DNA of 13,415 nt from Myxococcota bacterium (GTDB taxonomy: Bacteria > Myxococcota_A > UBA9160 > PR03). The notes under the pieces are model-generated. The model did no database searches and had not been told where the DNA came from. It was given only the letters and a program-made list of their open reading frames with translations. Of this stretch, positions 10-13,373 are shown piece after piece; positions within the stretch are counted from its first letter, which is position 1, and each line of letters begins with the position of its first letter. Location: positions 1 to 13,415 of the forward strand of contig JBFIML010000068.1 in assembly GCA_041611735.1 (NCBI GenBank), written 5' to 3'. The position numbers and the translations under genes were made by a program.

Positions 10-762
10 GTGACTGAGATCGATCGGAGACGCTTCTGGCGCCTGGGGCCGGCTGGCCTGCTGCTCGGCGGGTGCTTACTCGCGGCGGTGGCGTCCCACG
101 CCACCACGATCCACGGCAACTTCGTCGGGACGAACTACGACTACCTGGGCGTGCAGGAGACCTCGAGCTTCGGGGACCCGGAGCCGCTGTTCGGAGCCCC
201 GATCATCGTGGGCGACAGCCTGGTCTTCACGCCGACGACCTTCAGCGCGTCGGCGGCCGGCGCCTTCGGCTTCGACCAGACCGGCGCGCAGCTGCAGGCG
301 ACGATCATGTCTACCGGCGCCCTCCCGATCAACGTCATCACGATCGATGAGTTCGGCGAGGTGGACCTCTCGGGGGTCGGCAGCCCGGCGACCGGCGCCT
401 TCATCAGCATGTCCGGCGTGGTCACCGTGCTCGAGACGACCGGCGGGCCGTGCGTCGCGTGCCAGATTCCCTGGGTCGGCACCTTCACCCCGAGCGACCT
501 GTATGGGCTGCCCGCGGACGCCGGTCAGACGCTGTTCCAGGGGAACGCGCTCATCGACGTCGCCTCGTTCTTCCCGAACGCGACGAAGGTATTCCTGTCG
601 TTCGACAACGACATGATCGTGTCCAGCGAAGCCGGGACCACGGCGATCATGGAGAAGAAACCGACCATCGTGATCAGCGTTCCCGAGCCCGGGACCGTGC
701 TCCTGCTGGGCAGCGCCGCGCTCGCATTCGCGCTGCGCGCCCGTCGCGGGTCCACTCGCTGA
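10..762 (+). CDS. PEP-CTERM sorting domain-containing secreted protein (cassette 1, small partner)
   Basis: N-terminal signal peptide (basic RRR, hydrophobic core, ASHA cleavage-like site). C-terminus VPEPGTVLLLGSAALAFALRARR is a classic PEP-CTERM signal (VPEP codons begin at 679). GTG start at 10 is near the window edge, so the start is uncertain. Confidence 0.9.
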   Translation: MTEIDRRRFWRLGPAGLLLGGCLLAAVASHATTIHGNFVGTNYDYLGVQETSSFGDPEPLFGAPIIVGDSLVFTPTTFSASAAGAFGFDQTGAQLQATIMSTGALPINVITIDEFGEVDLSGVGSPATGAFISMSGVVTVLETTGGPCVACQIPWVGTFTPSDLYGLPADAGQTLFQGNALIDVASFFPNATKVFLSFDNDMIVSSEAGTTAIMEKKPTIVISVPEPGTVLLLGSAALAFALRARRGSTR

Positions 763-827
763 GTCTCGACATGAATCCGACACTGAATCTGGACAGCCGG
801 TTCGCGAAGCGGGCCCGGTCTGCAGGC

Positions 828-834
828 AAAGGAG
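828..834 (+). promoter_or_regulatory. Ribosome binding site for the 841 GTG start
   Basis: AAAGGAG ends 6 nt upstream of GTG 841. Confidence 0.7.
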
Positions 835-840
835 TCTCAA

Positions 841-3666
841 GTGTGTAAGACCGGTCTCGTAACCGCCCTGTTCTCGATCTTCCTACTCGCCGCTCCGGCC
901 GCCTTCGGCCAGGTCAACTACGGCGACTTCCTGGGTACCGGCGTCGACTTCTTGCAGGTGACCGAGACGACCCAGACGCCTCCGGACCCGGCCGTCCTGT
1001 GGGACGCGCCGGTCCTGAATGGTGCGGGCTCGGGTCTGGAGTTCTTCCCGCCCAACTTCACCTCCATCTGCGCTGCCGGAAGCAGCGACATCACCTCTTC
1101 ACAGCTCCAGACGACGATCATGGCCCAGGGCGCCAACACCATCGATGAGGTCGCCCTGCTGGAGAGCGGCGATGTCACGCTCACCAAGTTCCCCCCCTTC
1201 GGCGACCCGACCACCAACGCGTCGGCGAGCCTCGGGGGCTTCCTGACCGTGATCGAGGACACCGGCGGGCCCATCGTGCCCGTGGTGATTCCGTTCGCGG
1301 GGACCTTCGTTCCGGCCAGCACCTTCAGCCTCCCGGGCGATTTCGGCGCGAGCACCTGGCAGGGCAGCTTCCTGATCGACGTCGCCGCGCAGGTGCCCAA
1401 TGCGACCAAGGCTATCCTGCAGCTCAACAACACCCTGGACTCGAACTGCGGGGCCGGGGCAACCAGCGGCAAGATCCAGAAGAAGTCCGTGGGCGGCCCG
1501 ACGGTTGCCCTGATCGTCAATCCGACGCCTTGTGACCTGCTGATCGAAAAGACCTGCTGCCTGCCCACGCCGGCCTCGCCGGGCATCGACATCTGCGAGG
1601 GCAAGTCCGTGCGTGCGGTCTTCGAGGTGACCGGCGGCGGCTGTGACGCCACGACGAACGACCAGGAAGGCAAGGCCAAGTGCAGCGGCCTCGACCCGGT
1701 GCTGGATCCGGGCGACACGGTGGACATCACCGTCCTCAAGGACGAGGACAAGGTCAGCGTGAACGGGAACCTGGGCGGCACGACGGGCGTGCCCGTCGGG
1801 AGCACCATCGAGTTCACGCACGTGGACGGCGAGCTCAAGGCCAGCACCAAGTTCCGGGTGAGCGGGCCGGGCGGCAACCAGGAGCTCACGGTCCACACCT
1901 CCTGCTCGAAGTCGCTGGCGTGCGGCGACCAGTTCGGCAGCGTCCAGCTGGTGGAGCTCCAGACCACCGAGGGTGGCACCACCGTCTGCACCCAGCCGGA
2001 AGAGGGCGGCACCCAGTGCACGCCGCCCCAGGGCCAGGTGGGGGTCGGGTGCACCGAGCGGCCGGTCCAGATCGTGTTCGAGTACACCGGCTCGGCGTGC
2101 CAGAACCCGTTGCCGCAGCCGCCGGACAAGGCGGAGTGCGCGGGTGATCCCGCGGGTGCGCAGCCGGTCAGCGTGACCTACACCGGCAAGGACCCCGGCA
2201 AGTTCACGCTCGATCCTGCCAGCAACATCGACGTGGGCGAGACCTTCTCGTTCACCGCGACGGGCCGCGACGAGCTCCACTCGGAGTCGCAGTTCCTGAT
2301 CGCGGACGCGGGCGGCGTGGTGCAGAACCTCAGGCTCCACACCTCGTGCTCGCAGCCGCTGGCGTGCGGCGACGAGTTCGGCGCGCTCAAGATCGTGGAG
2401 TTCACTCAGAAGGACGGCACTGTCGTGTCCTGCGACACCGATCCGGGGCCGCTCTTCCAGCAGGCGTGCGAGGTTCCGCTGGCGCCGCCGACGCCGCACT
2501 GCACCAGCAAGGTGATGGAGCTGCAGCTCGCCTACATCGGCGACGCCTTCGGTCTGGGCTGCGGCGTCAGCAATCCGCAGGACGGCAAGGCGAGCTGCAC
2601 GGGCGTGGACGACCCGGGCAGCCCGGTCTCGGTCACCATCACCAAGGACCCGGACAAGGTGTTCGCCGATCCGAACGCCGGCATCAACGCGCCGACGATG
2701 ACGAGCGTGGACGTGGTCTCGATCTTCAAGGAAGAAGGCGGGGTGCGGAAGGAGCTTGCCTCCACCACGGAGTTCGACGTCTCCGGTCCGGGCGGGACGC
2801 AGTCGCTCGCGATCCACACCTCCTGCTCGCAGCCGCTCAACCTGGGCGACGTGTTCGGCTCCTTCGCGGTGGTGGGCATCGACCGCCAGGACGACGGCTT
2901 CGTCGGCCTCGGCGGCCAGGTCGAGTACCAGTACACGGTGACCAACCCGAACGCGGGCGACGCCACCAACGTGGGGGTCCTCGACGATCCGTTCGGCCTG
3001 ATCGCGAGCGGGGAGACGATCCCGGCCGGCGAGAGCAAGACGTTCTTCACCACGAAGACGCTCTACGCGACGCTGACCAACGAGGCGTTCGTGTCCGGCG
3101 AGGTGGGCAACTCCACGTGCACGCAGACGCCGGATCCGGAAGAGCTCACGGTGACGGTCAGCCTGCCGCCCCAGGGCTCCTTCGACTGCAGCGACGCGAA
3201 GCCCATCAACCAGCTCTCGATGGAATGGGCGGGTCTCCAGAACGTCCGCATCCGCGCCTGGAAGGGAAGCGTGGGCGGCACGCTGCTGAAGGACCAGGAC
3301 AACGTCATGCCCAGCGACGTGGTGACGGTGACCGGTCTCGGCGGCTCGCCCAACGATCAGGTCTGGGAGGTCTTCCAGGCCGGGACGCTCAACAAGATCG
3401 GGGAGTCGCAGTTCCACATCTCGTGCTCGGATTCCAACATGAACGGGATCGAGGACTGTGGAAAGGCGCAGGGCGACGGGAAGAGCGACGACCCGGCGAA
3501 GCTCAACGACTGGCTCTTCGAGGGCATGAAGGGCGACCAGACGCTCGACTGCACGCCGGATCCGATCCAGACGCCGGGCCCGGGCTTCTGCGGTCTCGGC
3601 TTCGAGCTGGCCCTGCTCCTGCCGGGCCTGATGTGGCTGCATCGCCGGCGGCGGACGGCGAGCTAG
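841..3666 (+). CDS. Large Cys-rich secreted/surface protein (941 aa): head domain, HTSCS-repeat stalk, Ig-like (DUF11-like) segment, C-terminal CGLGFEL-TM-Arg tail
   Basis: Signal peptide ending AAFG. HTSCS motifs at 1894, 2338 and 2815, HISCS at 3415. GQVEYQYTVTN...NVGVLDD...IPAGESKTF Ig-like motif. Ends GPGFCGLGFELALLLPGLMWLHRRRRTAS. Good RBS; paralog at 6059..8785. Confidence 0.9.
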   Translation: MCKTGLVTALFSIFLLAAPAAFGQVNYGDFLGTGVDFLQVTETTQTPPDPAVLWDAPVLNGAGSGLEFFPPNFTSICAAGSSDITSSQLQTTIMAQGANTIDEVALLESGDVTLTKFPPFGDPTTNASASLGGFLTVIEDTGGPIVPVVIPFAGTFVPASTFSLPGDFGASTWQGSFLIDVAAQVPNATKAILQLNNTLDSNCGAGATSGKIQKKSVGGPTVALIVNPTPCDLLIEKTCCLPTPASPGIDICEGKSVRAVFEVTGGGCDATTNDQEGKAKCSGLDPVLDPGDTVDITVLKDEDKVSVNGNLGGTTGVPVGSTIEFTHVDGELKASTKFRVSGPGGNQELTVHTSCSKSLACGDQFGSVQLVELQTTEGGTTVCTQPEEGGTQCTPPQGQVGVGCTERPVQIVFEYTGSACQNPLPQPPDKAECAGDPAGAQPVSVTYTGKDPGKFTLDPASNIDVGETFSFTATGRDELHSESQFLIADAGGVVQNLRLHTSCSQPLACGDEFGALKIVEFTQKDGTVVSCDTDPGPLFQQACEVPLAPPTPHCTSKVMELQLAYIGDAFGLGCGVSNPQDGKASCTGVDDPGSPVSVTITKDPDKVFADPNAGINAPTMTSVDVVSIFKEEGGVRKELASTTEFDVSGPGGTQSLAIHTSCSQPLNLGDVFGSFAVVGIDRQDDGFVGLGGQVEYQYTVTNPNAGDATNVGVLDDPFGLIASGETIPAGESKTFFTTKTLYATLTNEAFVSGEVGNSTCTQTPDPEELTVTVSLPPQGSFDCSDAKPINQLSMEWAGLQNVRIRAWKGSVGGTLLKDQDNVMPSDVVTVTGLGGSPNDQVWEVFQAGTLNKIGESQFHISCSDSNMNGIEDCGKAQGDGKSDDPAKLNDWLFEGMKGDQTLDCTPDPIQTPGPGFCGLGFELALLLPGLMWLHRRRRTAS

Positions 3667-3688
3667 CCGAGCGGGCGGCGAGCCCACC

Positions 3689-3725
3689 CAACGCCCCGGC
3701 CTTCGGGCCGGGGCGTTGTCGTTTC
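3689..3725 (+). terminator. Probable intrinsic terminator hairpin (copy 1)
   Basis: Perfect 13-bp stem CAACGCCCCGGCC / GGCCGGGGCGTTG with a TTCG loop (C(UUCG)G tetraloop), followed by TCGTTTC. Begins 22 nt after the stop at 3666. The U-tail is weak. Confidence 0.8.
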
Positions 3726-3800
3726 GGGGGGCCGGCGTCGCTACCCTGGAGGCATTCCAAGCCGGGGGAGCCACCCTCCTTGAAGTTCAGACCGGCACCC

Positions 3801-4925
3801 ATGGGCGTTGCCGGCGCCCTGCTCGCGAACCTCGTGATCTTCGGCGCGCTGGGCCTCTTCAGCTGGTTGAACGGCTTCGACAGCGACCTCTTCTATCGCA
3901 GCGTGCAGGAGGACGAGTGGATCGAGTGGGGGACCTTCTGGGCCTTCCTGCTCGCCGCCGGCGCCTTCGGGTGGGCCGCCGTGCGCCAGCGGCGGGTCGC
4001 CCGCGTCTGGCCCTGGTTCCTGGCGGGAGTCGGTCTGTTCTGCTTCGCGGTCGCCATGGAGGAGATCTCCTGGGGGCAGCGCATCCTGGGCTACCGGCCC
4101 CCGGCCTACTTCCTGGCGCACAACTACCAGCAGGAGCTCAACGTCCACAACGTGATGGACAGCGACCTCCGCAAGCTCTCGGTGAAGGTCGTGATCCTGG
4201 GCTATGGGGCGGTGCTTCCGCTGCTCGGGCTGGTTCCGGGGCTGGCCGGGGCGTTGCGACGACTGGCCGTGGTGCCGCCGCCGGTGGAGCTCGTCCCCGG
4301 CTTCCTGGCCGCCTTCTGGATCTACGACGCCTACCCCTTCAAGTTCTCCGGCGAGATCACGGAGCTCATGATGGGCTTCTGCTTCCTGTTCGCGGGCCTC
4401 GCGCCCTGGCGCGAGCTGGCGCCGCCAGCTGCGAACACCGCCCGGCGCCGGCTGGCCCTGCCCGTGGCCGTGGCCACAGGGCTGGTGGTGGGCCTCGGCG
4501 CGGCCAACGCCTGGTCCTCGCGCTCACGGCGCAGCGCCTCGCCGGAGCTGTTGGAGGCCGCCCGCGCCGAGCTGTGGGCCCTCACTCGCGACTTCCACCA
4601 GCGCGCCCGGGAGATCGGCGGGCTCCCGAGCCGCTGCGGCGTGCACAAGCGGCTCTACACCTTCCGGCGCCAGTACGGCCAGCGCTTCCTCGACACGGGT
4701 CAGTTCGCCGCCCTGGGCGGGCAGGGGCTTCCCGCCGAGCGGGCGGAGTTCTTCCTGGATCCCTGGAACTCCCCCTACTGGCTCCGCGACAAGTGCAGCC
4801 CCGACCGGCGCCGGAGGGTGGTCTTCGTCTACTCCTTCGGGCCGAACCGGCGCCGGGACTCCAGCGCCTGGGAGGTCCGGGGTGACGACGTGGGTGGGCT
4901 GCTGCTGGTCCATCCTCGGGAGTGA
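3801..4925 (+). CDS. Multi-pass membrane protein with EEISWGQR/ELNVHN motifs and a C-terminal GspG (T2SS pseudopilin)-like domain
   Basis: Real coding part of the 2346..4925 ORF, taken from ATG 3801 (alternative in-frame TTG at 3780 with GGGGAG upstream). Several hydrophobic segments; motifs QEDEWIEW, MEEISWGQR (EE at 4059), QELNVHN, GEITEL. The C-terminal DPWNSPYW...YSFGPN...GDDV resembles the GspG C-terminal signature DPWGxxY...SxGPDG...DDI. Confidence 0.8.
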   Translation: MGVAGALLANLVIFGALGLFSWLNGFDSDLFYRSVQEDEWIEWGTFWAFLLAAGAFGWAAVRQRRVARVWPWFLAGVGLFCFAVAMEEISWGQRILGYRPPAYFLAHNYQQELNVHNVMDSDLRKLSVKVVILGYGAVLPLLGLVPGLAGALRRLAVVPPPVELVPGFLAAFWIYDAYPFKFSGEITELMMGFCFLFAGLAPWRELAPPAANTARRRLALPVAVATGLVVGLGAANAWSSRSRRSASPELLEAARAELWALTRDFHQRAREIGGLPSRCGVHKRLYTFRRQYGQRFLDTGQFAALGGQGLPAERAEFFLDPWNSPYWLRDKCSPDRRRRVVFVYSFGPNRRRDSSAWEVRGDDVGGLLLVHPRE

Positions 4926-5085
4926 GCCGCGCCGTGAGCGGAAAGCCTGAACCCCTTGGGGACTGGATGGGGAGGGAAAGCTGGTTCCGGAAAAGCAGAA
5001 GAGGTTTTCCTCGCCAGCCCCGCGGGAACTCGTTGCGCCGCTGCGGCGCCAGGATATAAGTCTCCGAAATGAATATGGTTTTATT

Positions 5086-5117
5086 GGACGCGAGGGACGC
5101 GAGGGACGCGGGGGGGG
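5086..5117 (+). repeat. 9-bp tandem repeat (GGACGCGAG x2 + GGACGCGGG) running into a G8 tract
   Basis: Units at 5086-5094, 5095-5103 and 5104-5112; G run at 5110-5117. Confidence 0.85.
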
Positions 5118-5118
5118 C

Positions 5119-5134
5119 TGGCACCGGGCTTGCA
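5119..5134 (+). promoter_or_regulatory. Sigma-54 (RpoN) -24/-12 promoter
   Basis: TGGCACCGGGCTTGCA matches the consensus TGGCAC-N5-TTGCW with exact GG(5120-21)-N10-GC(5132-33) spacing. It is intergenic, about 80 nt upstream of a PEP-CTERM gene. Confidence 0.85.
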
Positions 5135-5216
5135 TCGCTTTCCCGTGACTTTCTTTCGCGCTGCGGGGCGCGCAAGGGGCATTGTGCCGGGAACCCGAGG
5201 GAGAAGGGGGATCTTG

Positions 5217-5951
5217 GTGTCGGCTTCTGCGAAGCGGTTATCCGAGATTGCGTGCCGGGTCCTGCTCTCGGGGGCGTTGCTGCTCGGGCTTTCGGGCCCG
5301 GCGTCCGCCACGCTCTTCACCATCGACGGGAGCGGCGACGGCGCCCTCCAACTGGACGGCTCGGACGACAAGACGTTCAGCTTCACCGGGTCGACGGGCA
5401 CGGCCAGCGGCAGGATCCGGGCCGTCGACATCTCGTCCATCACGCTTGGCGACATTGCGTTCCAGATCGGCCCCGCGGGCTTCGCCGGCCTCGACGTCCT
5501 CGTCTTCGACATCGTGCTGAACGCCGGGTCGGCTCCCCTGGACCAGATCGGCGTCGCCGTGGCGACGGCTCCGACCGGCCTCGACCCGGCCGGTGCCGGA
5601 TACCTGGTGGCGCCCGGGGAGACTCCCTCCCCGGCCAACGCCGTCTCGATCTCCACGGGCTTCAACGTCTGGCCGGGTCAGGCGCTGTTCGACTACCATC
5701 TGAATGGCTTGAGCGCGGGGAACCTGCAGGCGGGCGAAGCGACCCGCCGCCTGTTCGTCACCTGGAACGACACCGGGCCGAACTCGCCGCTAAACATCGG
5801 CCAGACTGCCACCTTCATGTTGAGCTCGGGGCTGGACCAGGACTTCATGGTCACGATCGTGCCCGAGCCCGCCTCCCTGGCCCTGGTGGCCGGGGGGCTG
5901 GTGGCCCTGGGCTTGGGTCTTCGCCGGCAGCGAAAGGGAATGCGGCCGTAG
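5217..5951 (+). CDS. PEP-CTERM sorting domain-containing secreted protein (cassette 2, small partner)
   Basis: GTG 5217 preferred over the ORF-track start at 5130, which lies inside the sigma-54 site. RBS-like GAAGGGGG 6 nt upstream; signal peptide ending PASA. C-terminus VPEPASLALVAGGLVALGLGLRRQRK (VPEP from 5859). Confidence 0.9.
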   Translation: MSASAKRLSEIACRVLLSGALLLGLSGPASATLFTIDGSGDGALQLDGSDDKTFSFTGSTGTASGRIRAVDISSITLGDIAFQIGPAGFAGLDVLVFDIVLNAGSAPLDQIGVAVATAPTGLDPAGAGYLVAPGETPSPANAVSISTGFNVWPGQALFDYHLNGLSAGNLQAGEATRRLFVTWNDTGPNSPLNIGQTATFMLSSGLDQDFMVTIVPEPASLALVAGGLVALGLGLRRQRKGMRP

Positions 5952-6023
5952 TCAGAGCCCCGCTCCGGGGCGCGTGCCGGGTCTGACAGCAGTGGGTGCT
6001 GCCGCATCTCACAGAACGGATCA

Positions 6024-6050
6024 GGAGCGCCCGGCAGGGCGCTCCGGAGG
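6024..6050 (+). promoter_or_regulatory. Intercistronic hairpin directly followed by a GGAGG ribosome binding site
   Basis: GGAGCGCCC-GGCA-GGGCGCTCC (6024-6045, perfect 9-bp stem), then GGAGG at 6046-6050, 8 nt before ATG 6059. Confidence 0.6.
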
Positions 6051-6058
6051 TTAGTCCG

Positions 6059-8785
6059 ATGGATCGTCGCTCTCGTGGGTTCGTGGGCCTGCTCGCCGCC
6101 CTGGCGCTCTTGGCCGCGGCTCCGCTGACCGCCTGGGCGGCTCCCGACCTCACCTTCGTGAGCGTCGTCAACGAGGACGACGGCTTCCCCGGCGTCTGCG
6201 CCGCCCCGTGCTTCTCCGTCCAGAAGACGGCGGACGTCTTCTTCGCCGTCAACCCGACCGGTCCGGGCGTGTGCGGAGCGGGCCAGAACACCTACCTCTA
6301 CAAGCTCACGCACCTCGGGGGCAGCGTGAATCCGGCGCCCCCCGTGAACCGCTTCGAGCTCAATGTCGACTTCACCCTGGTGTCCAGCGCCGGCTTCATC
6401 CCGGGTCCCGGCATCGCGCCGAACAGCACGACCGTGAGCCCCCTGAACATCGTGAGCTGGGAGTTCATGGCGCCCCCCATCTTCCAGGGCCAGGCGAGCA
6501 CCCAGCTCTTCCTCTGCTCCCCGGCTCCCCCCGGCGCGCCGGGCCAGACCCTCGTCTCCGTGGGCGGGGGCCCCCTGGATGCCCCCGGCGAGTGCATCGG
6601 ACCGGTGCAGGGCTGCGACCTGCAGGTCGACAAGACCTGCTGCATCCCGCAGCCGCCCATCCCGGCCGGCGACATCTGCGAAGGCAAGAGCATTCGCGCC
6701 GTCTTCGAGGTGGTGGACGGCAAGTGCGCGGACACCACCAACTTCCAGAACGGCGAGGCCAAGTGCAGCGGCCCGAATCCCATCGTGAACCCGGTGTTGG
6801 ACACGGTGTCGGTGGCGTTCCGGAATGCCAGTGACGGCGCCGAGATGCCGGTCACGCCGAGCTCGGGCCTGGCCGTGGGCGACACCTTCGAGATCACGAG
6901 CGTCAACCCGACGCTGCGCAACCAGCTCAAGCTCCTGGTGACGGGGCCCGGCGGCAGCCAGAACGTGGAGATCCACGCCTCCTGCTCCCAGTCCCTGCGC
7001 TGCAACGACCAGTTCGGCAGCCTCAGGCTGGTGGAGCTCGAGACCACGCTCGGCGGCACCACAGTCTGCAACGCGCCGGCGTCGCCCACGGCGGGGACCC
7101 AGTGCGTGCAGCCGCCCGGCCCCGGTGGCACGCCCTGCGACAGCAAGCTGGTCGAGGCGACCTTCAAGTTCACGCCCTCGAACTGCCAGTCGGCCACCTT
7201 CCAGAATGGAGCGGGCAGCTGCGCCGGCGACGCCTCGGACACGAACCTGCCCGTGAGCGTCACCTACACCGGGAAGGATCCGGCCAAGATCTCGGTGATC
7301 CCGGCCGCGGGCATCGGGAGCGGCGAAACCTTCAAGGTGGTGGCCACGGGTCGCGACGAGCTGCACTCGAACACGCCGCTGCTCATCGCCGACAACGACA
7401 GCGTGGAGCAGTCCTTGAGCATCCACACCTCGTGCTCGGCGCCGCTGGCCTGCGGCGACGTGTTCGGGAGCCTCAAGCTGGTGGCCTTCAAGACCAAGAA
7501 CGGGCTCACCGTGGACTGCGACACCCAGCCCGGGCCGATCTTCCAGAATGCGTGTGAGGTGCCGCTGGCGCCGCCCACGCCGCACTGCACCGGCAAGCTG
7601 GAGTCGCTGACGCTGGTCTACCTGAAGGAGCTGTTCGGCGCGAACTGCTCGCTCAGCAACCCGCAGAACGGGAAGGCGAGCTGCAGCGGCGCCAACCTGA
7701 ACGGGGACGACGTCTCCATCACGATCCTCACCGATCCCAGCAAGATCTCCGCGGATCCGAACGCGGACATCGACGAGAAGGGCCTGTTCACCATCACGAA
7801 GGTGGAGAACAACCAGAAGAAGGAGCTCCCGTCGGAGATCCAGTTCACCGCCACCGATGGGAACGCCAACAGCCAGACGGTGAAGATCCACACCTCCTGT
7901 TCGCAGCCGCTGAATCTGGGAGACCGCTTCGGTGACTTCGCCGTGTTCGCCATGGATCGCGGGGACGGCGACAACGCCGACTCCGACAGCGACACCGACG
8001 GCGAGGATGGTCTGATCAGCCTCGGCGGCCTGATCGAGTACCAGTACAAGGTCACCAACCCGAACCCGACCGGCGTCGTCAACGTGGCCGTATTGGACGA
8101 CCCGCACGGCACCATCGTGACCGGGGAGAGCCTGGCGGCGGGCGAGATGAAGACGTTCTTCGCCACCCGCACCCTGTTCGAGACGGTCGTCAACAAGGCG
8201 TTGGTGACGGCGGAGGACGCCGGAGGGGCCGAGTGCACGGCGGCCATGGACCAGCTGACGGTCACGGTGACGTTGCCGCCTCCGGGGTCGTTCGACTGCA
8301 GCGCCGCCAAGCCCATCAACGAGCTCTCGATGGAATGGGGCGGCCTCCAGAACGTCCGGATCCGCGCCTGGAAGGGGAACGTGGGGAGCACGCTCCTGAA
8401 GGATCAGGACAACATCGTGCCGGGCACGGTGGTGAAGGTGACCGGTCTGGGCGGCTCGCCCAACGACCAGGTCTGGGAGGTCTTCCAGGCCGGGACGCTG
8501 ACCAAGATCGGGGAGTCGAAGTTCCACATCTCCTGCTCCGACCCCGACATGAACGGCATCGAGGACTGCGGGAAGAACGAGGGCAACGGCAAGGACAACA
8601 CCGCAAGCCTCATCAACGCCTGGCTGTTCGAGGGCATGAAGGGCAACGGCAAGACGCTGAGCTGCACGCCGGTGGTGATCCCGCCGGGCGGTGGGGGAGG
8701 CAGCTGCGGTCTCGGCTTCGAGCTGGTTCTGCTGCTGCCCGGCCTGCTGTGGCTGCGGCGCCGCCGGAGTGCCCGGGCGAGCTAG
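6059..8785 (+). CDS. Large Cys-rich secreted/surface protein (908 aa), paralog of 841..3666 with a different head domain and the same CGLGFEL-TM-Arg tail
   Basis: ATG 6059 with GGAGG RBS; signal peptide MDRRSRGFVGLLAALALLAAAPLTAWA. HASCS/HTSCS/HTSCS/HISCS at 6974, 7424, 7889 and 8525. Colinear with the paralog from CDLQVDKTCC (6614) onward. Ends GGGGGSCGLGFELVLLLPGLLWLRRRRSARAS. Confidence 0.9.
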   Translation: MDRRSRGFVGLLAALALLAAAPLTAWAAPDLTFVSVVNEDDGFPGVCAAPCFSVQKTADVFFAVNPTGPGVCGAGQNTYLYKLTHLGGSVNPAPPVNRFELNVDFTLVSSAGFIPGPGIAPNSTTVSPLNIVSWEFMAPPIFQGQASTQLFLCSPAPPGAPGQTLVSVGGGPLDAPGECIGPVQGCDLQVDKTCCIPQPPIPAGDICEGKSIRAVFEVVDGKCADTTNFQNGEAKCSGPNPIVNPVLDTVSVAFRNASDGAEMPVTPSSGLAVGDTFEITSVNPTLRNQLKLLVTGPGGSQNVEIHASCSQSLRCNDQFGSLRLVELETTLGGTTVCNAPASPTAGTQCVQPPGPGGTPCDSKLVEATFKFTPSNCQSATFQNGAGSCAGDASDTNLPVSVTYTGKDPAKISVIPAAGIGSGETFKVVATGRDELHSNTPLLIADNDSVEQSLSIHTSCSAPLACGDVFGSLKLVAFKTKNGLTVDCDTQPGPIFQNACEVPLAPPTPHCTGKLESLTLVYLKELFGANCSLSNPQNGKASCSGANLNGDDVSITILTDPSKISADPNADIDEKGLFTITKVENNQKKELPSEIQFTATDGNANSQTVKIHTSCSQPLNLGDRFGDFAVFAMDRGDGDNADSDSDTDGEDGLISLGGLIEYQYKVTNPNPTGVVNVAVLDDPHGTIVTGESLAAGEMKTFFATRTLFETVVNKALVTAEDAGGAECTAAMDQLTVTVTLPPPGSFDCSAAKPINELSMEWGGLQNVRIRAWKGNVGSTLLKDQDNIVPGTVVKVTGLGGSPNDQVWEVFQAGTLTKIGESKFHISCSDPDMNGIEDCGKNEGNGKDNTASLINAWLFEGMKGNGKTLSCTPVVIPPGGGGGSCGLGFELVLLLPGLLWLRRRRSARAS

Positions 8786-8807
8786 CCGCTCGGATCGTGA
8801 GCCCAAG

Positions 8808-8844
8808 CAACGCCCCGGCCTTCGGGCCGGGGCGTTGTCGTTTC
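8808..8844 (+). terminator. Probable intrinsic terminator hairpin (copy 2), between convergent genes
   Basis: Same 13-bp stem, TTCG loop and TCGTTTC as at 3689; again begins 22 nt after the stop (8785). Confidence 0.8.
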
Positions 8845-8870
8845 GGGGACGGGTCTCCGGCCGGATTCGC

Positions 8871-11654
8871 TCAGGGGACGGCAGCCAGGGCGCCGGCCAG
8901 GGCGTGGGCCTCGGGCGTCGCGCCGAACGGGGCGAGCTCGTCGAGGCGCGCCAGGAGCCGGCGGGCCCGCGCCAGATCGCCCGCCTCCACCGCCAGCAGC
9001 CCCGCGTTCCCCAGGGCCTCCGGGAAGAAGGGATCGGCGGCCAGGGCCCGGTCGAAGGCCGCGCGGGCCTCCGGGACCGCGTCCCGACGACGCTGCAGAA
9101 CACCGAGCTGGTTCCAGGCCTCCCCGTCCCGGGGATGCTCCCGCACCAGGCGGGCCAGCTCGCGGCGGGCGGCCTCCCGGTCTCCGCGCCGCTCCAACAG
9201 GGCCGCCAGGCCGAAGCGGGCATCCCGGTGGTCCGGCGCCTCCGCGAGGACCGCCCGGTAGGCGGCCTCGGCGTCGTCCAGGCGGCCCTCGGAGAAGGCC
9301 CTGGTGGCCCGCACGGTGGCGTGGCGCAGGCGCACGCTCCGCGCCAGGTCGAGGCCCGAGGCCTCGGCCAGGGTGAGGCGGGTCCGGGCCCGGTCGGGGT
9401 CGCCTCGCCGCTGGGCCGCGACGCCCTCCACCAGGAGCCGCAGGGCCTCGGTCCGGGGATCCTCCGCGGCGCCGGCACGCGCCAGGCGCTCCAGCAGGGC
9501 GAGCTCCCCGCCGCTGCCTCGCGCGCGGCCGCGCACCGCCAGGGTCTCGAGGAGCGGACGGTCGTCGCTCAGGATCGGCCCCGGGCCGAGCGCCGCGCGC
9601 AGGGCCGCGAAGGAGGCCAGGCGCCGCCGCGCCAGCTCCGAGGGGCCATCGATGCCCAGGCGGTGCAGGGCGGCCGCCAGCTCCGGGTCCCGCACACGCG
9701 CGCCGAGCGCCGCCCGGTCCGGCGTCGGCGGGACGTGCGCGACCACCAGGAGGTTGTTCGCCCCCCACCACACGTCCCCTTCCGGGAAGACGGTGGCCAG
9801 GGTGCGCAGGATCGCGGCCAGCGCCTCGGCGCCGATACGCTCGATGGGCAACCACTGGGCCGCGACGCCGCCCGGGCGCAGCGCCGTCGCCATGCGCTCG
9901 AAGTACTCGCGCGAGTAGAGCCCCGTGGCTCCCAGGGACCAGGGATGCAGCGTGTTGGCCACCACCACGTCGTAGGTCGCCGGGTGGCGGGCCAGCCAGG
10001 CCCGCCCGTCGGCGCGCACGATGCGGATGCGCCCCGGGTCGGCGGCCAGTGCGGCGTCGTTGTCCGGGGCGAACAGGCGCGCCGCACGCAGCACCGAGTC
10101 GGCGATCTCGACGCAGTCGATGCGCTCCAGGGGGAAACCGGCTGCCGTGGCCAGGGTGATGCCGGAGCCCAGGCCGATCTCCAGGAAGCTGCGTGGATCG
10201 GCATGCCGGACCAGCGGCAGCACCGCCAGCAGCTCCTCGGTGGCGCGGGCGTCGCCCCCCGTGGACGCCTCGGGGTCGCCGTCCACCACCAGATCGCGCC
10301 GCCCGCCCACCCGCACCACGGCCGCCGTGGCCTGGCGCCCGTGGTCCACGAAGACGACCCGGCCCGCCGGGCTGCGGACACCGACCCCCGACAGGGTGGG
10401 CGCCGCGGCCAGGGCCACCAGACCGGCGGCCAGCGCGGTTCGCGTCCGGACGCTCTGGCGCGTGGGCGCTGCGTGCGCGAGGAAGGCCAGGGCCAGGGCC
10501 CCGTTCAGCCCCGCGCACAGCAGGATGCTCCCCGCCAGGCCGAGGGTCGGCAGCAGCACGAAAGGAGCGGCCAGGGCGCCGACGATGCCACCGGCGGTGT
10601 TGGCCGCACTCAGGGCGCCGAAGGAGCCGGCCAGGGCGCCGGAGCTGCGCACGCCGAGGCGCACCAGGAAGGGGAAGGCGGCTCCCATGAGGACGCTCGG
10701 GGGCAGGATGCAGGCAGCGATCCAGACCATCCAACGCGTAGAGAGTCCGACGGCCGGGGTCGCTGCGAAAGGCACCAGGACCACGATCCCGGCCGCCACC
10801 CAGACGGCGGCCGCCGTCTGGATCAGCCCGAGGCCGTTCGACGGTCGAGGGCTGCGGACGGCCCGGCGCGCGGCCCAGGCGTTGCCCCCCGCCAGGCCCA
10901 GGAGAAACAGGGCCAGGATCAGGGCCCAGGCGTAGAGGGACGAGCCGAGACGCAGCGCCGCCGCCCGGGTGGCGAGCACCTCGAAGCCCAGGGTGGCCAC
11001 GCCGGCCACGAAGGCCGCGCCGAGCAACGCGGCGGGGGGTCGTGGGGCCTCGGGCTTCGATGCGGCTCGGACTGGCGGGGTCGGACGGGCCAGGGCCAGG
11101 GCGGCCAGGCCGATCAGGATCGCCCAGGCGCCCGCCGCCCACAGCGTCGCGCGCAGACCGAAGGCGGGGATGGCCAGCGCCGCCGTCCCCACGCCCAGCA
11201 CGGCACCCGCCGTGTTGGCGGCCAGCAGGCGTCCCGCGTGGCGAGCCGCCTGCACGGCATCCGCGGTGGCGCTTCGCAGCAGGGCGGGAAGCGTGCCGCC
11301 CAGGAGGAAGGTGAGCGCGGCGATCCCGGCCGCAGCCAGGGCCAGGCGGGTGCCCGGCGCCCGACCCACCCAGGGCTGGGCGCCGAGCGCCCGCAGGAGC
11401 CAGGGCGAGGCCAGCGCCAGGACGCCGGCGGCGATCTCGAGGCCGGCGTAGAGGCGCAGGGGCGCGTGGAGCCGATCGGCGCGCGGGCCGAGGACGCGGG
11501 CGCCCAGGGCGAGCCCCCCGAAGAAGGCGGCCACCACCACCGAGACCGCTTCGATCTGGCCCGCTACCGCCAGCGCCACCTCGCGGGTCCAGACCACCTG
11601 GTAGACCAGGGCCGGGATGCCGGAGAGGAGAGCGAAGACGAGCGCGCGGAGCAT
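8871..11654 (-). CDS. Fused MFS-like membrane / spermidine synthase-like (class I SAM-binding) protein with C-terminal TPRs
   Basis: Two-fold repeated membrane region (VYQVVWTREVALAVAG...FFGGLALG; LGFEVLATRAAALRLGSSLYAWALIL..FLLGLAGG; ANTAGAVLG / ANTAGGIVG). SAM-binding motifs LEIGLGSGIT, IDCVEI, DGRAWL, YDVVV, GLYSREYF and ILSDDRPLLE. TPR-like EAWNQLG...FDRALAADP..PEALGNAG. Confidence 0.88.
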   Translation of the reverse strand: MLRALVFALLSGIPALVYQVVWTREVALAVAGQIEAVSVVVAAFFGGLALGARVLGPRADRLHAPLRLYAGLEIAAGVLALASPWLLRALGAQPWVGRAPGTRLALAAAGIAALTFLLGGTLPALLRSATADAVQAARHAGRLLAANTAGAVLGVGTAALAIPAFGLRATLWAAGAWAILIGLAALALARPTPPVRAASKPEAPRPPAALLGAAFVAGVATLGFEVLATRAAALRLGSSLYAWALILALFLLGLAGGNAWAARRAVRSPRPSNGLGLIQTAAAVWVAAGIVVLVPFAATPAVGLSTRWMVWIAACILPPSVLMGAAFPFLVRLGVRSSGALAGSFGALSAANTAGGIVGALAAPFVLLPTLGLAGSILLCAGLNGALALAFLAHAAPTRQSVRTRTALAAGLVALAAAPTLSGVGVRSPAGRVVFVDHGRQATAAVVRVGGRRDLVVDGDPEASTGGDARATEELLAVLPLVRHADPRSFLEIGLGSGITLATAAGFPLERIDCVEIADSVLRAARLFAPDNDAALAADPGRIRIVRADGRAWLARHPATYDVVVANTLHPWSLGATGLYSREYFERMATALRPGGVAAQWLPIERIGAEALAAILRTLATVFPEGDVWWGANNLLVVAHVPPTPDRAALGARVRDPELAAALHRLGIDGPSELARRRLASFAALRAALGPGPILSDDRPLLETLAVRGRARGSGGELALLERLARAGAAEDPRTEALRLLVEGVAAQRRGDPDRARTRLTLAEASGLDLARSVRLRHATVRATRAFSEGRLDDAEAAYRAVLAEAPDHRDARFGLAALLERRGDREAARRELARLVREHPRDGEAWNQLGVLQRRRDAVPEARAAFDRALAADPFFPEALGNAGLLAVEAGDLARARRLLARLDELAPFGATPEAHALAGALAAVP

Positions 11655-11664
11655 CGCTGCGCGG

Positions 11665-13206
11665 CTACAGCACCGCTTCGATCAGGTGGGGTCCGGGCTC
11701 GGCCAAGGCCCGTTCGAGCTCTCGCGCCAGGGCGTCGGCGCTCTCGACCCGGTTCGCTGGGACGCCCTGGCCCCGGGCCAGCGCCACCCAGTCGAGCTCC
11801 GGCCGGGCCAGCTGGGTGAAGGCCCGGGTGGCGGAGCCCGGCTCGGCCGCCCCGGCCCGCGCCTGCTCGATCTCGAGGATCCGGTAGCTCCGGTTGGCGC
11901 ACAGGACCGTGGTGACGTCCAGCCCCTGGCGAGCCTGGGTCCACAGGGCCTGGAGCGTGTACATGCCGCTCCCGTCGGCCTGCAGGGCGATCACCGGCCG
12001 CTCCGGGCATGCCAGGGCCGCCCCGGTGGCGAGCGGGAGCCCGATTCCGATGGCGCCGCCCGTGAGGCAGAGGTGGGTGTGAGGGGGGGATGAGGCGGCC
12101 GCCAGGAAATGGGGGAGGCTGGAGGTGAGGCCCTCGTCCACCAGGATGGTGCCCTCGGGCTGGAGGGCCGCCACCACGGACCCCAGGCTCTCGGGGGTCA
12201 GGGGACCCGTGCCGCGAGCGGGCCGCACGGGAGCCCGACGGTGCGGGACCCGACGGGCGTCGAGGGCGTCGGCCAGGGCGTCGAGGGCGCCCCGGGCGTC
12301 CTCCTCGGGAGCCGCCAGGACGTGCCGCTTGCAGGCCTCCGGTGCGATGCGGCTGGGGACGTCCGGATAGCCGAAGAAGGAGACCGGCTCGCGGGTGGCC
12401 ACCAGGACGAGGTCCGACAGGCCGGCCAGGGACTGGGCGGCCGTGTCCGGGAAGTAGGGCAGGCGCTCGACGCTCGGGAGGTCGCGGCCCCGCTCCAGGC
12501 GCGCGGGGAAGGTCTCGCAGATCAGGCGCGCCCCACTGGCCGCGGCCACCCGTGCCGCAGCGTGAAGCCCTGCCTGGGAGAGTCCCTGGCCGCCCAGAAA
12601 GAGCGCCGCCTGCCGGGCGCTCCGCAGCGTGCGCGCCACCGCGTCCACGGTCTCCGACGCCACGGCCCGGGGCCCTCTGGCTTGCGGCGTCGCCACCGGA
12701 CCGTCCGCCTCCTCCCACTGGCAGTCCGCGGGCACCACCAGCGTCGCCACCTGGCCCGGCGGCTCGAGGGCGGCAGCCCAGGCCCGGGCGCCGTCGGGAG
12801 CGAGGTCCTTGGCGGAGCGCACCGCGTGCAGCCAGCCGGAGACCGGCCGCGCCAGGGACTCGATGTCCGACGCCAGGGGCGCGTCGTGGGTGGCGTGCCA
12901 GGTGGCGTGGTCGCCGATCAGATTGAGGACGGGGGTGCGGGCGCGGCGCGCATTGTGCAGGTTCGCGATGCCGTTGGCGAAGCCCGGCCCCAGATGGAGG
13001 AGCGTCAGGGCCGGGCGCCCGGTCATGCGGCCCCAGCCGTCCGCGGCGCCGGTGCAGACGCCCTCGAAGAGGCCGAGCACCGGCAGGATGCCCGGGACCC
13101 GGTCGAGGGCCGCCACCAGGGGCATCTCGGTGGTGCCGGGATTCGCGAAGCAGACCGTCACCCCGGCGCCGGCCAGGGTCCGCATCAGGCTCTCGGCTCC
13201 GTTCAT
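11665..13206 (-). CDS. Thiamine diphosphate-dependent enzyme, acetolactate synthase large subunit-like
   Basis: Start MNGAESL at ATG 13206 with GGGAGG upstream. Motifs CFANPGTTEMPLV, LGLFEGVCTGAADG (catalytic Glu), LLHLGPGFANG, GGAIGIGLP and the ThDP motif variant ADGSGMYT...N. Substrate cannot be determined from sequence. Confidence 0.92.
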   Translation of the reverse strand: MNGAESLMRTLAGAGVTVCFANPGTTEMPLVAALDRVPGILPVLGLFEGVCTGAADGWGRMTGRPALTLLHLGPGFANGIANLHNARRARTPVLNLIGDHATWHATHDAPLASDIESLARPVSGWLHAVRSAKDLAPDGARAWAAALEPPGQVATLVVPADCQWEEADGPVATPQARGPRAVASETVDAVARTLRSARQAALFLGGQGLSQAGLHAAARVAAASGARLICETFPARLERGRDLPSVERLPYFPDTAAQSLAGLSDLVLVATREPVSFFGYPDVPSRIAPEACKRHVLAAPEEDARGALDALADALDARRVPHRRAPVRPARGTGPLTPESLGSVVAALQPEGTILVDEGLTSSLPHFLAAASSPPHTHLCLTGGAIGIGLPLATGAALACPERPVIALQADGSGMYTLQALWTQARQGLDVTTVLCANRSYRILEIEQARAGAAEPGSATRAFTQLARPELDWVALARGQGVPANRVESADALARELERALAEPGPHLIEAVL

Positions 13207-13373
13207 GCCGCCTCCCCCCCTCGCGGCCGCCCAGGGTAGCCCCGCAGTCCCGAAAACCTCAATCGGGACTGGACGATCGGGCACCGGGGCCCTAGTGTGT
13301 GCCGCCGTCCGACGGCCCCCGGGGCGCCCTCCTCACGCCCCGGGCTTTCCTCGTCGATCCGGGAGAGCTTCGG

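Follow-up and report, generated by a model that had tools for sequence, protein, structure and literature searches.

PEP-CTERM proteins, the substrates of exosortases, abound in environmental bacteria, and floc formation depends on them. Curli (CsgA/CsgB), sortase pili with basal pilins and type V pili (FimA/FimB) are each built from a repeating subunit and a homologous, anchored terminal subunit. Here we describe a locus that recalls both kinds of system, on a 13,415-nucleotide (nt) contig of a Myxococcota bacterium (GenBank assembly GCA_041611735.1, contig JBFIML010000068.1), which was analyzed in its entirety and is hereafter called the window; the source genome comprises 4.1 Mb with 72% GC and is 95% complete. 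The window carries two cassettes, each consisting of a short PEP-CTERM gene (S1 or S2) and a gene for a large protein (L1 or L2) with an N-terminal head, a body and a cysteine-containing C-terminal tail. The likeness to curli, sortase pili and type V pili lies in the operon of a subunit and a homologous, anchor-bearing terminal subunit; the differences are that no sequence relation was found, that the predicted contact is sheet-on-sheet rather than donor strand or amyloid, and that both subunits here bear C-terminal sorting signals, of different classes. The arrangement of S and L, which recurs in a group of uncultured myxobacteria, suggests a surface chain of a novel type that has an end-anchor of its own. 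The specific reading that chains of S end on L as the anchored terminal subunit is one to which we give slightly less than an even chance, and literature searches retrieved no PEP-CTERM protein that polymerizes or that has a cognate, anchored paralogue.

An earlier reading of the window, hereafter the original prediction, had described the two-cassette layout, and its structural elements were confirmed (Table 1): both large proteins end in CGLGFEL, a hydrophobic stretch and RRRR, the same 30-nt hairpin follows each cassette, and the L bodies are colinear from the CDL.[IV].K motif onward (56% identity over 696 columns). That reading had missed that the body of each L is made of three DUF7467 domains (Pfam PF24269), all above cut-off. 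No conserved hairpin was evident between S and L across cassettes. S1 and S2 are standard exosortase substrates, as evidenced by matches to PF07589 (26.6 and 23.5 bits, respectively; cut-off 20.7) and TIGR02595, by the C-terminal PEP motif, helix and basic cluster, and by four PF09721 exosortase matches in the genome, one of them above the XrtA cut-off of TIGR03109 (209.7 versus 208). In their substrates, their exosortases and an upstream sigma-54 motif the cassettes are like the PEP-CTERM/exosortase system of floc-forming Zoogloea and Aquincola, which includes PepA, but S1 and S2, at 32.5 and 39.3, do not reach the PepA family cut-off of 80.

Each head had been predicted to resemble the PEP-CTERM protein encoded upstream of it and not the other head. 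The L1 and L2 heads are indeed unrelated (z = -0.7) and are referred to below as class A and class B. The resemblance to the upstream protein is direct in cassette 1, with 41% identity between S1 and the L1 head along 201 aa (E 1e-42, z = 41 against shuffles), whereas in cassette 2 it fails pairwise, the alignment of S2 with the L2 head being no better than chance (z = 1.2; its score was matched by 63 of 500 shuffles), and is visible in profiles only. By hhalign the S2 family and the class-B head reached a probability of 20-24% (E ~1e-3, 76-104 colinear columns), compared with 0.5% or less for mismatched S/head pairs after trimming, and when a class-B head hidden Markov model (HMM) was run over 122 PEP-CTERM domains, class-B S proteins took 11 of the top 12 places (best E 2e-6). 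An early 62% hhalign match between class-A and class-B heads disappeared after trimming, and the relation was rejected.

PF24269 exceeded its cut-off in 46 of 201 genomes of the class; a first scan of genome contigs with L1 had returned no matches. The pairing of S and L was assessed at loci from 41 of these 46 genomes, containing 48 DUF7467 open reading frames (ORFs). Class-A heads occurred at 16 loci in six families, and a class-A PEP-CTERM gene lay directly upstream in all 16. Among the 24 class-B loci, an S2-family gene was found upstream in 10, a cut-off PEP-CTERM gene at the contig edge in one, the gene downstream in one, and none in 12. Class C comprised two loci, one with a homologous PEP-CTERM gene upstream (hhalign 83%, E 9e-6), and the remaining six ORFs were 5'-truncated, frameshifted or had other heads. 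The predicted gene order and, at the family level, the match between head and upstream PEP-CTERM domain both held across genomes, with the correction that only 10 of 24 class-B L genes have S directly upstream. The match was extended by the class-C pair, so that the arrangement is now seen with three unrelated domain families. Cross-class S/L pairs were absent among the 48 ORFs. The class-B S HMM was built from 8 of the 10 genes that it scores; class-B S proteins also cluster by BLAST. Tail-bearing L genes were preceded by a cognate S in 17 of 18 assessable cases, compared with 2 of 61 other tail-bearing genes preceded by any PEP-CTERM gene.

The match does not extend to individual loci, as the original prediction had expected it to. 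A head's own S was its best-matching S at only 1 of the 16 class-A loci, best head-to-head identities were 58-72% versus 33-53% between a head and its own S, and in a quick tree all 16 class-A heads fell on one side of a branch with an SH-aLRT value of 99.8. Because the heads form their own clade, the correspondence of S and head is, as judged from sequence, a family-level one that stems from one ancient duplication; that head and S co-evolve, or undergo gene conversion, locus by locus was rejected in view of the clade and the 1/16 result. One ancestral duplication would account for all class-A pairs, and class-A PEP-CTERM tandem pairs without L exist, both of which would fit the view that S and L stand paired as a side effect of tandem duplication and domain shuffling in which the head was captured from the neighbor and the linkage inherited. 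We regard this view as very improbable, since class-A linkage has persisted at 16/16 loci over six families despite divergence of S to ~35-60% identity, the arrangement arose with three unrelated domains, and the asymmetry of faces described next is directional.

A complex model of the cognate pair S1 and L1 head gave an interaction prediction score from aligned errors (ipSAE) of 0.82, compared with 0.00 for the best of three controls; 116 of 157 solved pairs attain the ipSAE mark, as do 2 of 215 mismatched ones, figures that are approximate for the alignments used here. Runs agreed in at least 99% of contacts, with a partner predicted local distance difference test (pLDDT) score of at least 91. 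The modeled interface is heterologous and face-to-back: a sheet of S (face 1) packs against the head's opposite sheet (face 2), and the two patches, mapped on one domain, have zero positions in common. There are 5.4 aromatic residues on face 1 of S versus 1.1 on that of heads, with S higher in 16/16 pairs, while face 2 carries 2.7 and 2.8, respectively; identity between the S and head consensus is 58% on face 2 and 38% on face 1. Since the aromatic face 1 is present in S and lost in the head while face 2 is alike, S appears in the model to combine the two faces whereas the head retains only the receiving one, a pattern characteristic of a subunit that repeats and one that terminates. The earlier idea of a major subunit plus an anchor thus gains, for class A, a predicted interface and a face asymmetry that accord with it, the binding of anchor to major subunit being seen in the model only. 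The asymmetry probably also drives the orientation of the model.

The complex prediction concerns the heterodimer only, which would fit a closed 1:1 S-L heterodimer in which the task of S is to pair with, tether or help fold the head and no polymer forms. The distribution of the aromatic face favors this as well, since it is typical of L-linked S and mostly absent in unlinked homologues: at least three aromatics occupy the 17 central face-1 positions in 15 of 16 L-linked S, compared with 1 of 21 class-A PEP-CTERM proteins without an L gene in the fetched stretch. Most class-B L proteins lack the CGxGxEL tail, and tail-less L are often still preceded by S (loci L045, L127, L129, L134 and L137-L139); S would then be the only anchor of a tail-less class-B L. 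We nevertheless think a closed dimer somewhat unlikely, because S face 2 resembles that of the head and is at least as aromatic at its center (1.6 versus 0.8 aromatics), so that self-stacking would have to be actively prevented, and because a tail-bearing L needs no second anchor. A reading in which S and L do not touch at all, being independent adhesin or lectin variants that present one binding domain on two carriers and anchors from one promoter, draws on the facts that exposed aromatic faces are also typical of carbohydrate-binding surfaces, that both head folds look like generic ligand-binding beta-sandwiches and that heads also occur without S. It is unlikely in our judgment, for the head has lost the aromatic face, so that this binding surface is not common to both, the complex scored far above controls, and heads are more conserved than S.

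In the AlphaFold2 (AF2) model (pLDDT 97) the class-A domain is an elongated beta-sandwich, a fold that it shares with its best match, Bd1399/DUF4360 (PDB 8OKH; Z 11.4, root-mean-square deviation 3.2 A, 151 aligned; next entry Z 7.6), from which it differs in having 7% identity and no DUF4360 Pfam match. The paper on Bd1399, a Bdellovibrio protein, describes an edge-to-edge twofold crystal dimer and gives the function as unknown (PMC10792529). The class-B head is a generic Ig/cohesin-like sandwich (matches at Z 7-8.7). Foldseek returned no close PDB match for either the class-A domain model or the class-B head model, and the Atlas search gave S1 and S2 matches that were all below 0.9. Residues C54 and C180 are invariant in 16/16 class-A heads. 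Tandem pairs or triples of distant class-A PEP-CTERM genes, with no L beside them and mostly lacking the aromatic face, were seen as well (L048, L371-L374, L377).

The description of L as a long stalk-mounted form is now doubtful, because the DUF7467 repeats seem to be inserted in a split Ig domain. Matches to DUF11 or DUF7507 begin directly after the last DUF7467 domain but only at profile positions 11-19 (L1 DUF11: 15; homologues DUF7507: 11-17), and the CDL.[IV].K strand after the head presumably supplies the missing first strand, whose DUF11 pattern it matches. The DUF7467 repeats thus seem nested inside one split DUF11/DUF7507 domain; the head would then stand about two domains above the membrane, and L is probably not a linear stalk or rod. 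The L2 linker equivalent to the CDL strand was unstructured, with low pLDDT, when modeled without the C-terminal half. DUF7467 is uncharacterized, a literature search for it by name returned no paper, and the fold search barely reached the domain itself. In the tail-less class-B L of one genus (L126, L128, L130, L132, L133, L135) we observed His-rich C-terminal runs and a basic, Trp-rich insertion in the first DUF7467 domain.

The tail, with consensus CG[LIF]G[FP]EL[AV][LF]LLPPL[ML]WL[RH]RRRR, is not peculiar to L, a point that the original prediction had missed. The source genome contains 13 matches (10 intact genes and 3 fragments), and besides L1 and L2 eight further intact genes carry it, with cargo including a multicopper oxidase, two subtilases, a trypsin-like protease, CAP, LamG and FG-GAP/ASPIC, and GDPD as a variant. 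A profile built from 39 sequences yielded 609 matches in 108 of the 201 class genomes (1-32 copies each) and matched 0 of 203 genomes of the phylum outside the class; among 1.84 billion representatives, 1,750 clusters at 50% identity carried the tail. It lies near the C-terminus (128 of 146 motif matches within 29 aa of the end), occurs several times per genome, has four invariant residues (C, G, G and E; the sorting-signal criteria of Haft call for at least three), a helix and an Arg cluster, and is borne by unrelated cargo of 7 Pfam types; homologues without the signal or with another one exist, namely tail-less L and class-A domains on PEP-CTERM proteins.

With MYXO-, JDVT-, Synerg- and CGP-CTERM the tail shares a tripartite C-terminal signal, an invariant Cys, many unrelated cargo and the phylum. 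It scored 15.8-19.3 bits against the MYXO-CTERM model TIGR03901 (cut-off 20), with 0 matches above cut-off in the genome and PEP-CTERM tails scoring alike. Haft states that true MYXO-CTERM members can score low and defines the signal by a helix without charged or Pro residues and by frequent GCGC (bioRxiv 10.1101/2023.06.07.544157); the tail helix, with an invariant Glu at +5 and a near-invariant Pro at +11, falls outside this definition. Myxosortase (NF040914) is almost absent, the best match in the source genome reaching 32 bits versus a cut-off of 100 and the core exceeding cut-off in 1 of 201 class genomes. The JDVT-, Synerg- and CGP-CTERM models gave no tail match to E 10 with HMMER filters on, the motif differs from the JDVT DP at +9 and the CGP GP after Cys, and MrtJ, MrtS and MrtA were below cut-off. 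Literature searches for the tail motif, largely confined to papers outside subscription, returned no relevant paper. On sequence criteria, the tail is shown to be a lineage-specific Cys signal without a recognized sortase, in keeping with the earlier view that the large protein is sorted by a route other than the exosortase. As separate observations, near-identical tail fragments without a long ORF lie at the ends of contigs C53 and C103 (L062:3014-3115 and L063:4690-4922); in genome G005 (L051, L052) tandem subtilases with a degenerate tail alternate with small PEP-CTERM genes, several frames running into the next gene; and in many tail-bearing cargo proteins (L055-L061, L333) acidic double-disulfide repeats (NF033662) just before the tail form a common spacer module.

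Two candidates for the tail enzyme were rejected. The exosortase clade found at L008 seemed specific when 6 genomes were compared and failed at class scale, being present in 67 genomes, 40 of them with the tail, not found in 68 tail-positive genomes, and present in 21 of 32 genomes of a family in which the tail is rare. The MrtA-like CPBP protein of L005, encoded 6 kb from a tail gene, was present in only one of two other tail-rich genomes. A comparison of three tail-positive and three tail-negative genomes, in which a clade common to all six would not show, revealed no tail-specific CPBP clade, and no tail-specific rhomboid clade was found in 11 genomes. The neighborhoods of 61 non-L tail genes held no recurring membrane enzyme; a rhomboid-like gene stood beside three, below the rhombosortase cut-off. 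In genome G058 the sole tail-bearing gene, an RHS/YD protein (L335:4095-5891), is followed by a rhomboid (38 bits versus the rhombosortase cut-off of 84).

A paralogue of Lgt (PF01790) is the next gene after 14 L genes, each of which has the GPEL variant and 13 of which also have a convergent PAP2 gene; it follows 0 of 6 GFEL-variant L genes, L1 and L2 among them. The 40 genomes with the paralogue are all tail-positive, including 26 in which it is not beside L, and at least two Lgt genes occur in 80 of 108 tail-positive versus 20 of 93 tail-negative genomes, counts that include kin and in which genome size is uncontrolled, so that their P-values exaggerate the association. At 20 loci without L the paralogue had no typical tail gene as neighbor (one degenerate tail lay 1.4 kb off). 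One paralogue (L040:11367-12134) has SSFGG in place of the catalytic HGG motif of E. coli Lgt; a conserved HDHPG follows its GR motif, and altered chemistry or specificity is possible. Beside tail-less L, a GspC-like PDZ gene was found at 15 loci, below the GspC cut-off, a hint that tail-less L may use type II secretion.

A strict sigma-54 motif, with a background of 0.007 per 700 bp, was found upstream of cassette 2 and, on the overlapping contig C59, of cassette 1, and a sigma-70 scan found no site. RpoN is reported to control a floc-forming PEP-CTERM gene (PMC9850573). We observed that C59 overlaps positions 1-416 of the window with 6 of 416 bases differing and identical protein over the compared part; strain variation or a second copy of S1 would explain this.

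We propose that each cassette would be a sigma-54 operon encoding the two subunits of one surface assembly. S would be exported and sorted by exosortase, as is established for PEP-CTERM proteins, and its beta-sandwich, with two complementary faces, would stack on further copies, face against back, to give a chain, a ribbon or a ring. The L head would keep the receiving face, by which it is predicted to bind S, and because it has lost the aromatic donating face, L would be restricted to one end of the S chain. L would be held in the membrane by its Cys-containing tail, probably through Lgt-type lipidation at the Cys followed by clipping, by analogy with MYXO-CTERM, for which Lgt-like lipidation was proposed (Guo et al., PMC11980579). 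As base or nucleator, L would display a cluster of disulfide-rich DUF7467 domains, with adhesion or aggregation in a surface matrix as the likely role, which has been shown for the PEP-CTERM proteins of floc formers. Polymerization of S, terminal anchoring by L and lipidation at the Cys are steps that we infer. The fullest version of the proposal, an undescribed diderm surface fiber or ribbon of sheet-stacked, exosortase-sorted PEP-CTERM subunits, capped by a one-faced paralogue and lipid-anchored via a fifth, myxosortase-independent Cys-CTERM signal, with a dedicated Lgt paralogue in many genomes and a design rebuilt at least three times with unrelated domains, is tentative and stands well short of an even chance.

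Several observations weigh against a chain of S ending on L. The modeled contact is that of the S1-L1 head heterodimer and not of S with S; the face asymmetry and the complex score derive from the same sequences and are not independent, and the 16 pairs stem from one duplication. In class B, S and head are only remotely homologous, the predicted binding covers class A only, and 12 of 24 L genes have no nearby S (7 belong to one genus; in 4 the contig extends <450 bp upstream). At 3 of 16 GTDB loci a class-A head-type domain is joined to another body, and the three genomes concerned, of unstated completeness, yielded no class-A S. The strict sigma-54 motif is present at only 5 of 25 cassettes. 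Finally, the source genome has a single Lgt alongside its 13 tail matches, so that the Lgt paralogue may be dispensable, or unassembled here.

The S/L family provides a definite partner for a PEP-CTERM protein, together with an interface prediction and specific residues, by which the idea of polymerization becomes testable. The tail is a further Cys-containing sorting signal in a lineage without recognizable myxosortase, and its profile would flag as surface-anchored ~600 proteins of the genomes sampled. As for the lipidating enzyme postulated in the MYXO-CTERM model, the Lgt paralogue found next to 14 loci is a candidate.

Table 1. Features of the window, in order of position.
Feature	Position	Strand	Remarks
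S1, class-A PEP-CTERM protein	10..762	+	Signal peptide; all-beta domain ~103-681; VPEP-helix-RRR from 679
L1, large partner, 941 aa, 30 Cys	841..3666	+	
L1 class-A head, paralogue of S1 domain	910..1521	+	41% to S1; without aromatic face; one extra conserved Cys pair
CDL.I.KTCC strand of L1	1531..1560	+	Putative strand 1 of split DUF11/DUF7507 Ig domain, from position and low-pLDDT L2 equivalent
L1 three DUF7467 domains	1618..2877 (1618-1956, 2059-2403, 2557-2877)	+	PF24269
Rest of L1 DUF11/DUF7507-like Ig domain	2896..3174	+	Weak DUF11 match from profile position 15
L1 membrane-proximal Cys-containing domain with HISCS	3175..3570	+	No Pfam match; possibly degenerate DUF7467, by motif likeness
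L1 CGLGFEL-helix-RRRR sorting tail	3589..3663	+	Tail alignment
Terminator-like hairpin, end of cassette 1	3689..3718	+	Similar hairpins 3' of most homologous L genes
Membrane protein between cassettes, recurrent neighbor	3801..4925	+	No significant family match
Palindromic enhancer-like site	4989-5010		Upstream of cassette 2
Sigma-54 -24/-12 motif TGGCAC-N5-TTGC	5119..5133	+	Upstream of cassette 2
S2, class-B PEP-CTERM protein	5217..5951	+	PF07589; start codon uncertain
L2, large partner, 908 aa, 32 Cys	6059..8785	+	
L2 class-B head, Ig/cohesin-like beta-sandwich	6143..6610	+	AF2 block pLDDT 92-98; remote S2-family homologue by profiles
L2 three DUF7467 domains	6710..7945 (6710-7036, 7145-7489, 7601-7945)	+	PF24269
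L2 CGLGFEL-helix-RRRR sorting tail	8705..8782	+	
Terminator-like hairpin, end of cassette 2	8808..8837	+	30 nt, identical to cassette 1 hairpin
Fused MFS/spermidine synthase-like protein with TPR repeats	8871-11654	-	NF037959 above cut-off
Acetolactate synthase large subunit-like TPP enzyme	11665-13284	-	NF005760; unrelated to cassettes

Among the neighboring genes, homologues of the membrane protein between the cassettes, 45-53% identical, flank cassettes at L042, L107 and L121; its C-terminus (LDPWNSPY...YSFGPN...GDD) presumably resembles the C-terminal motif of the type II secretion pseudopilin GspG. At L042:2090-3839 (genome G035), all that remains of L after S is its final ~230 aa, the head and DUF7467 domains having been deleted or mis-assembled. 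A homologue of the MFS/spermidine synthase-like gene is found near class-B L genes at 9 other loci, and for this reason its neighborhood is probably the ancestral site of cassette 2.

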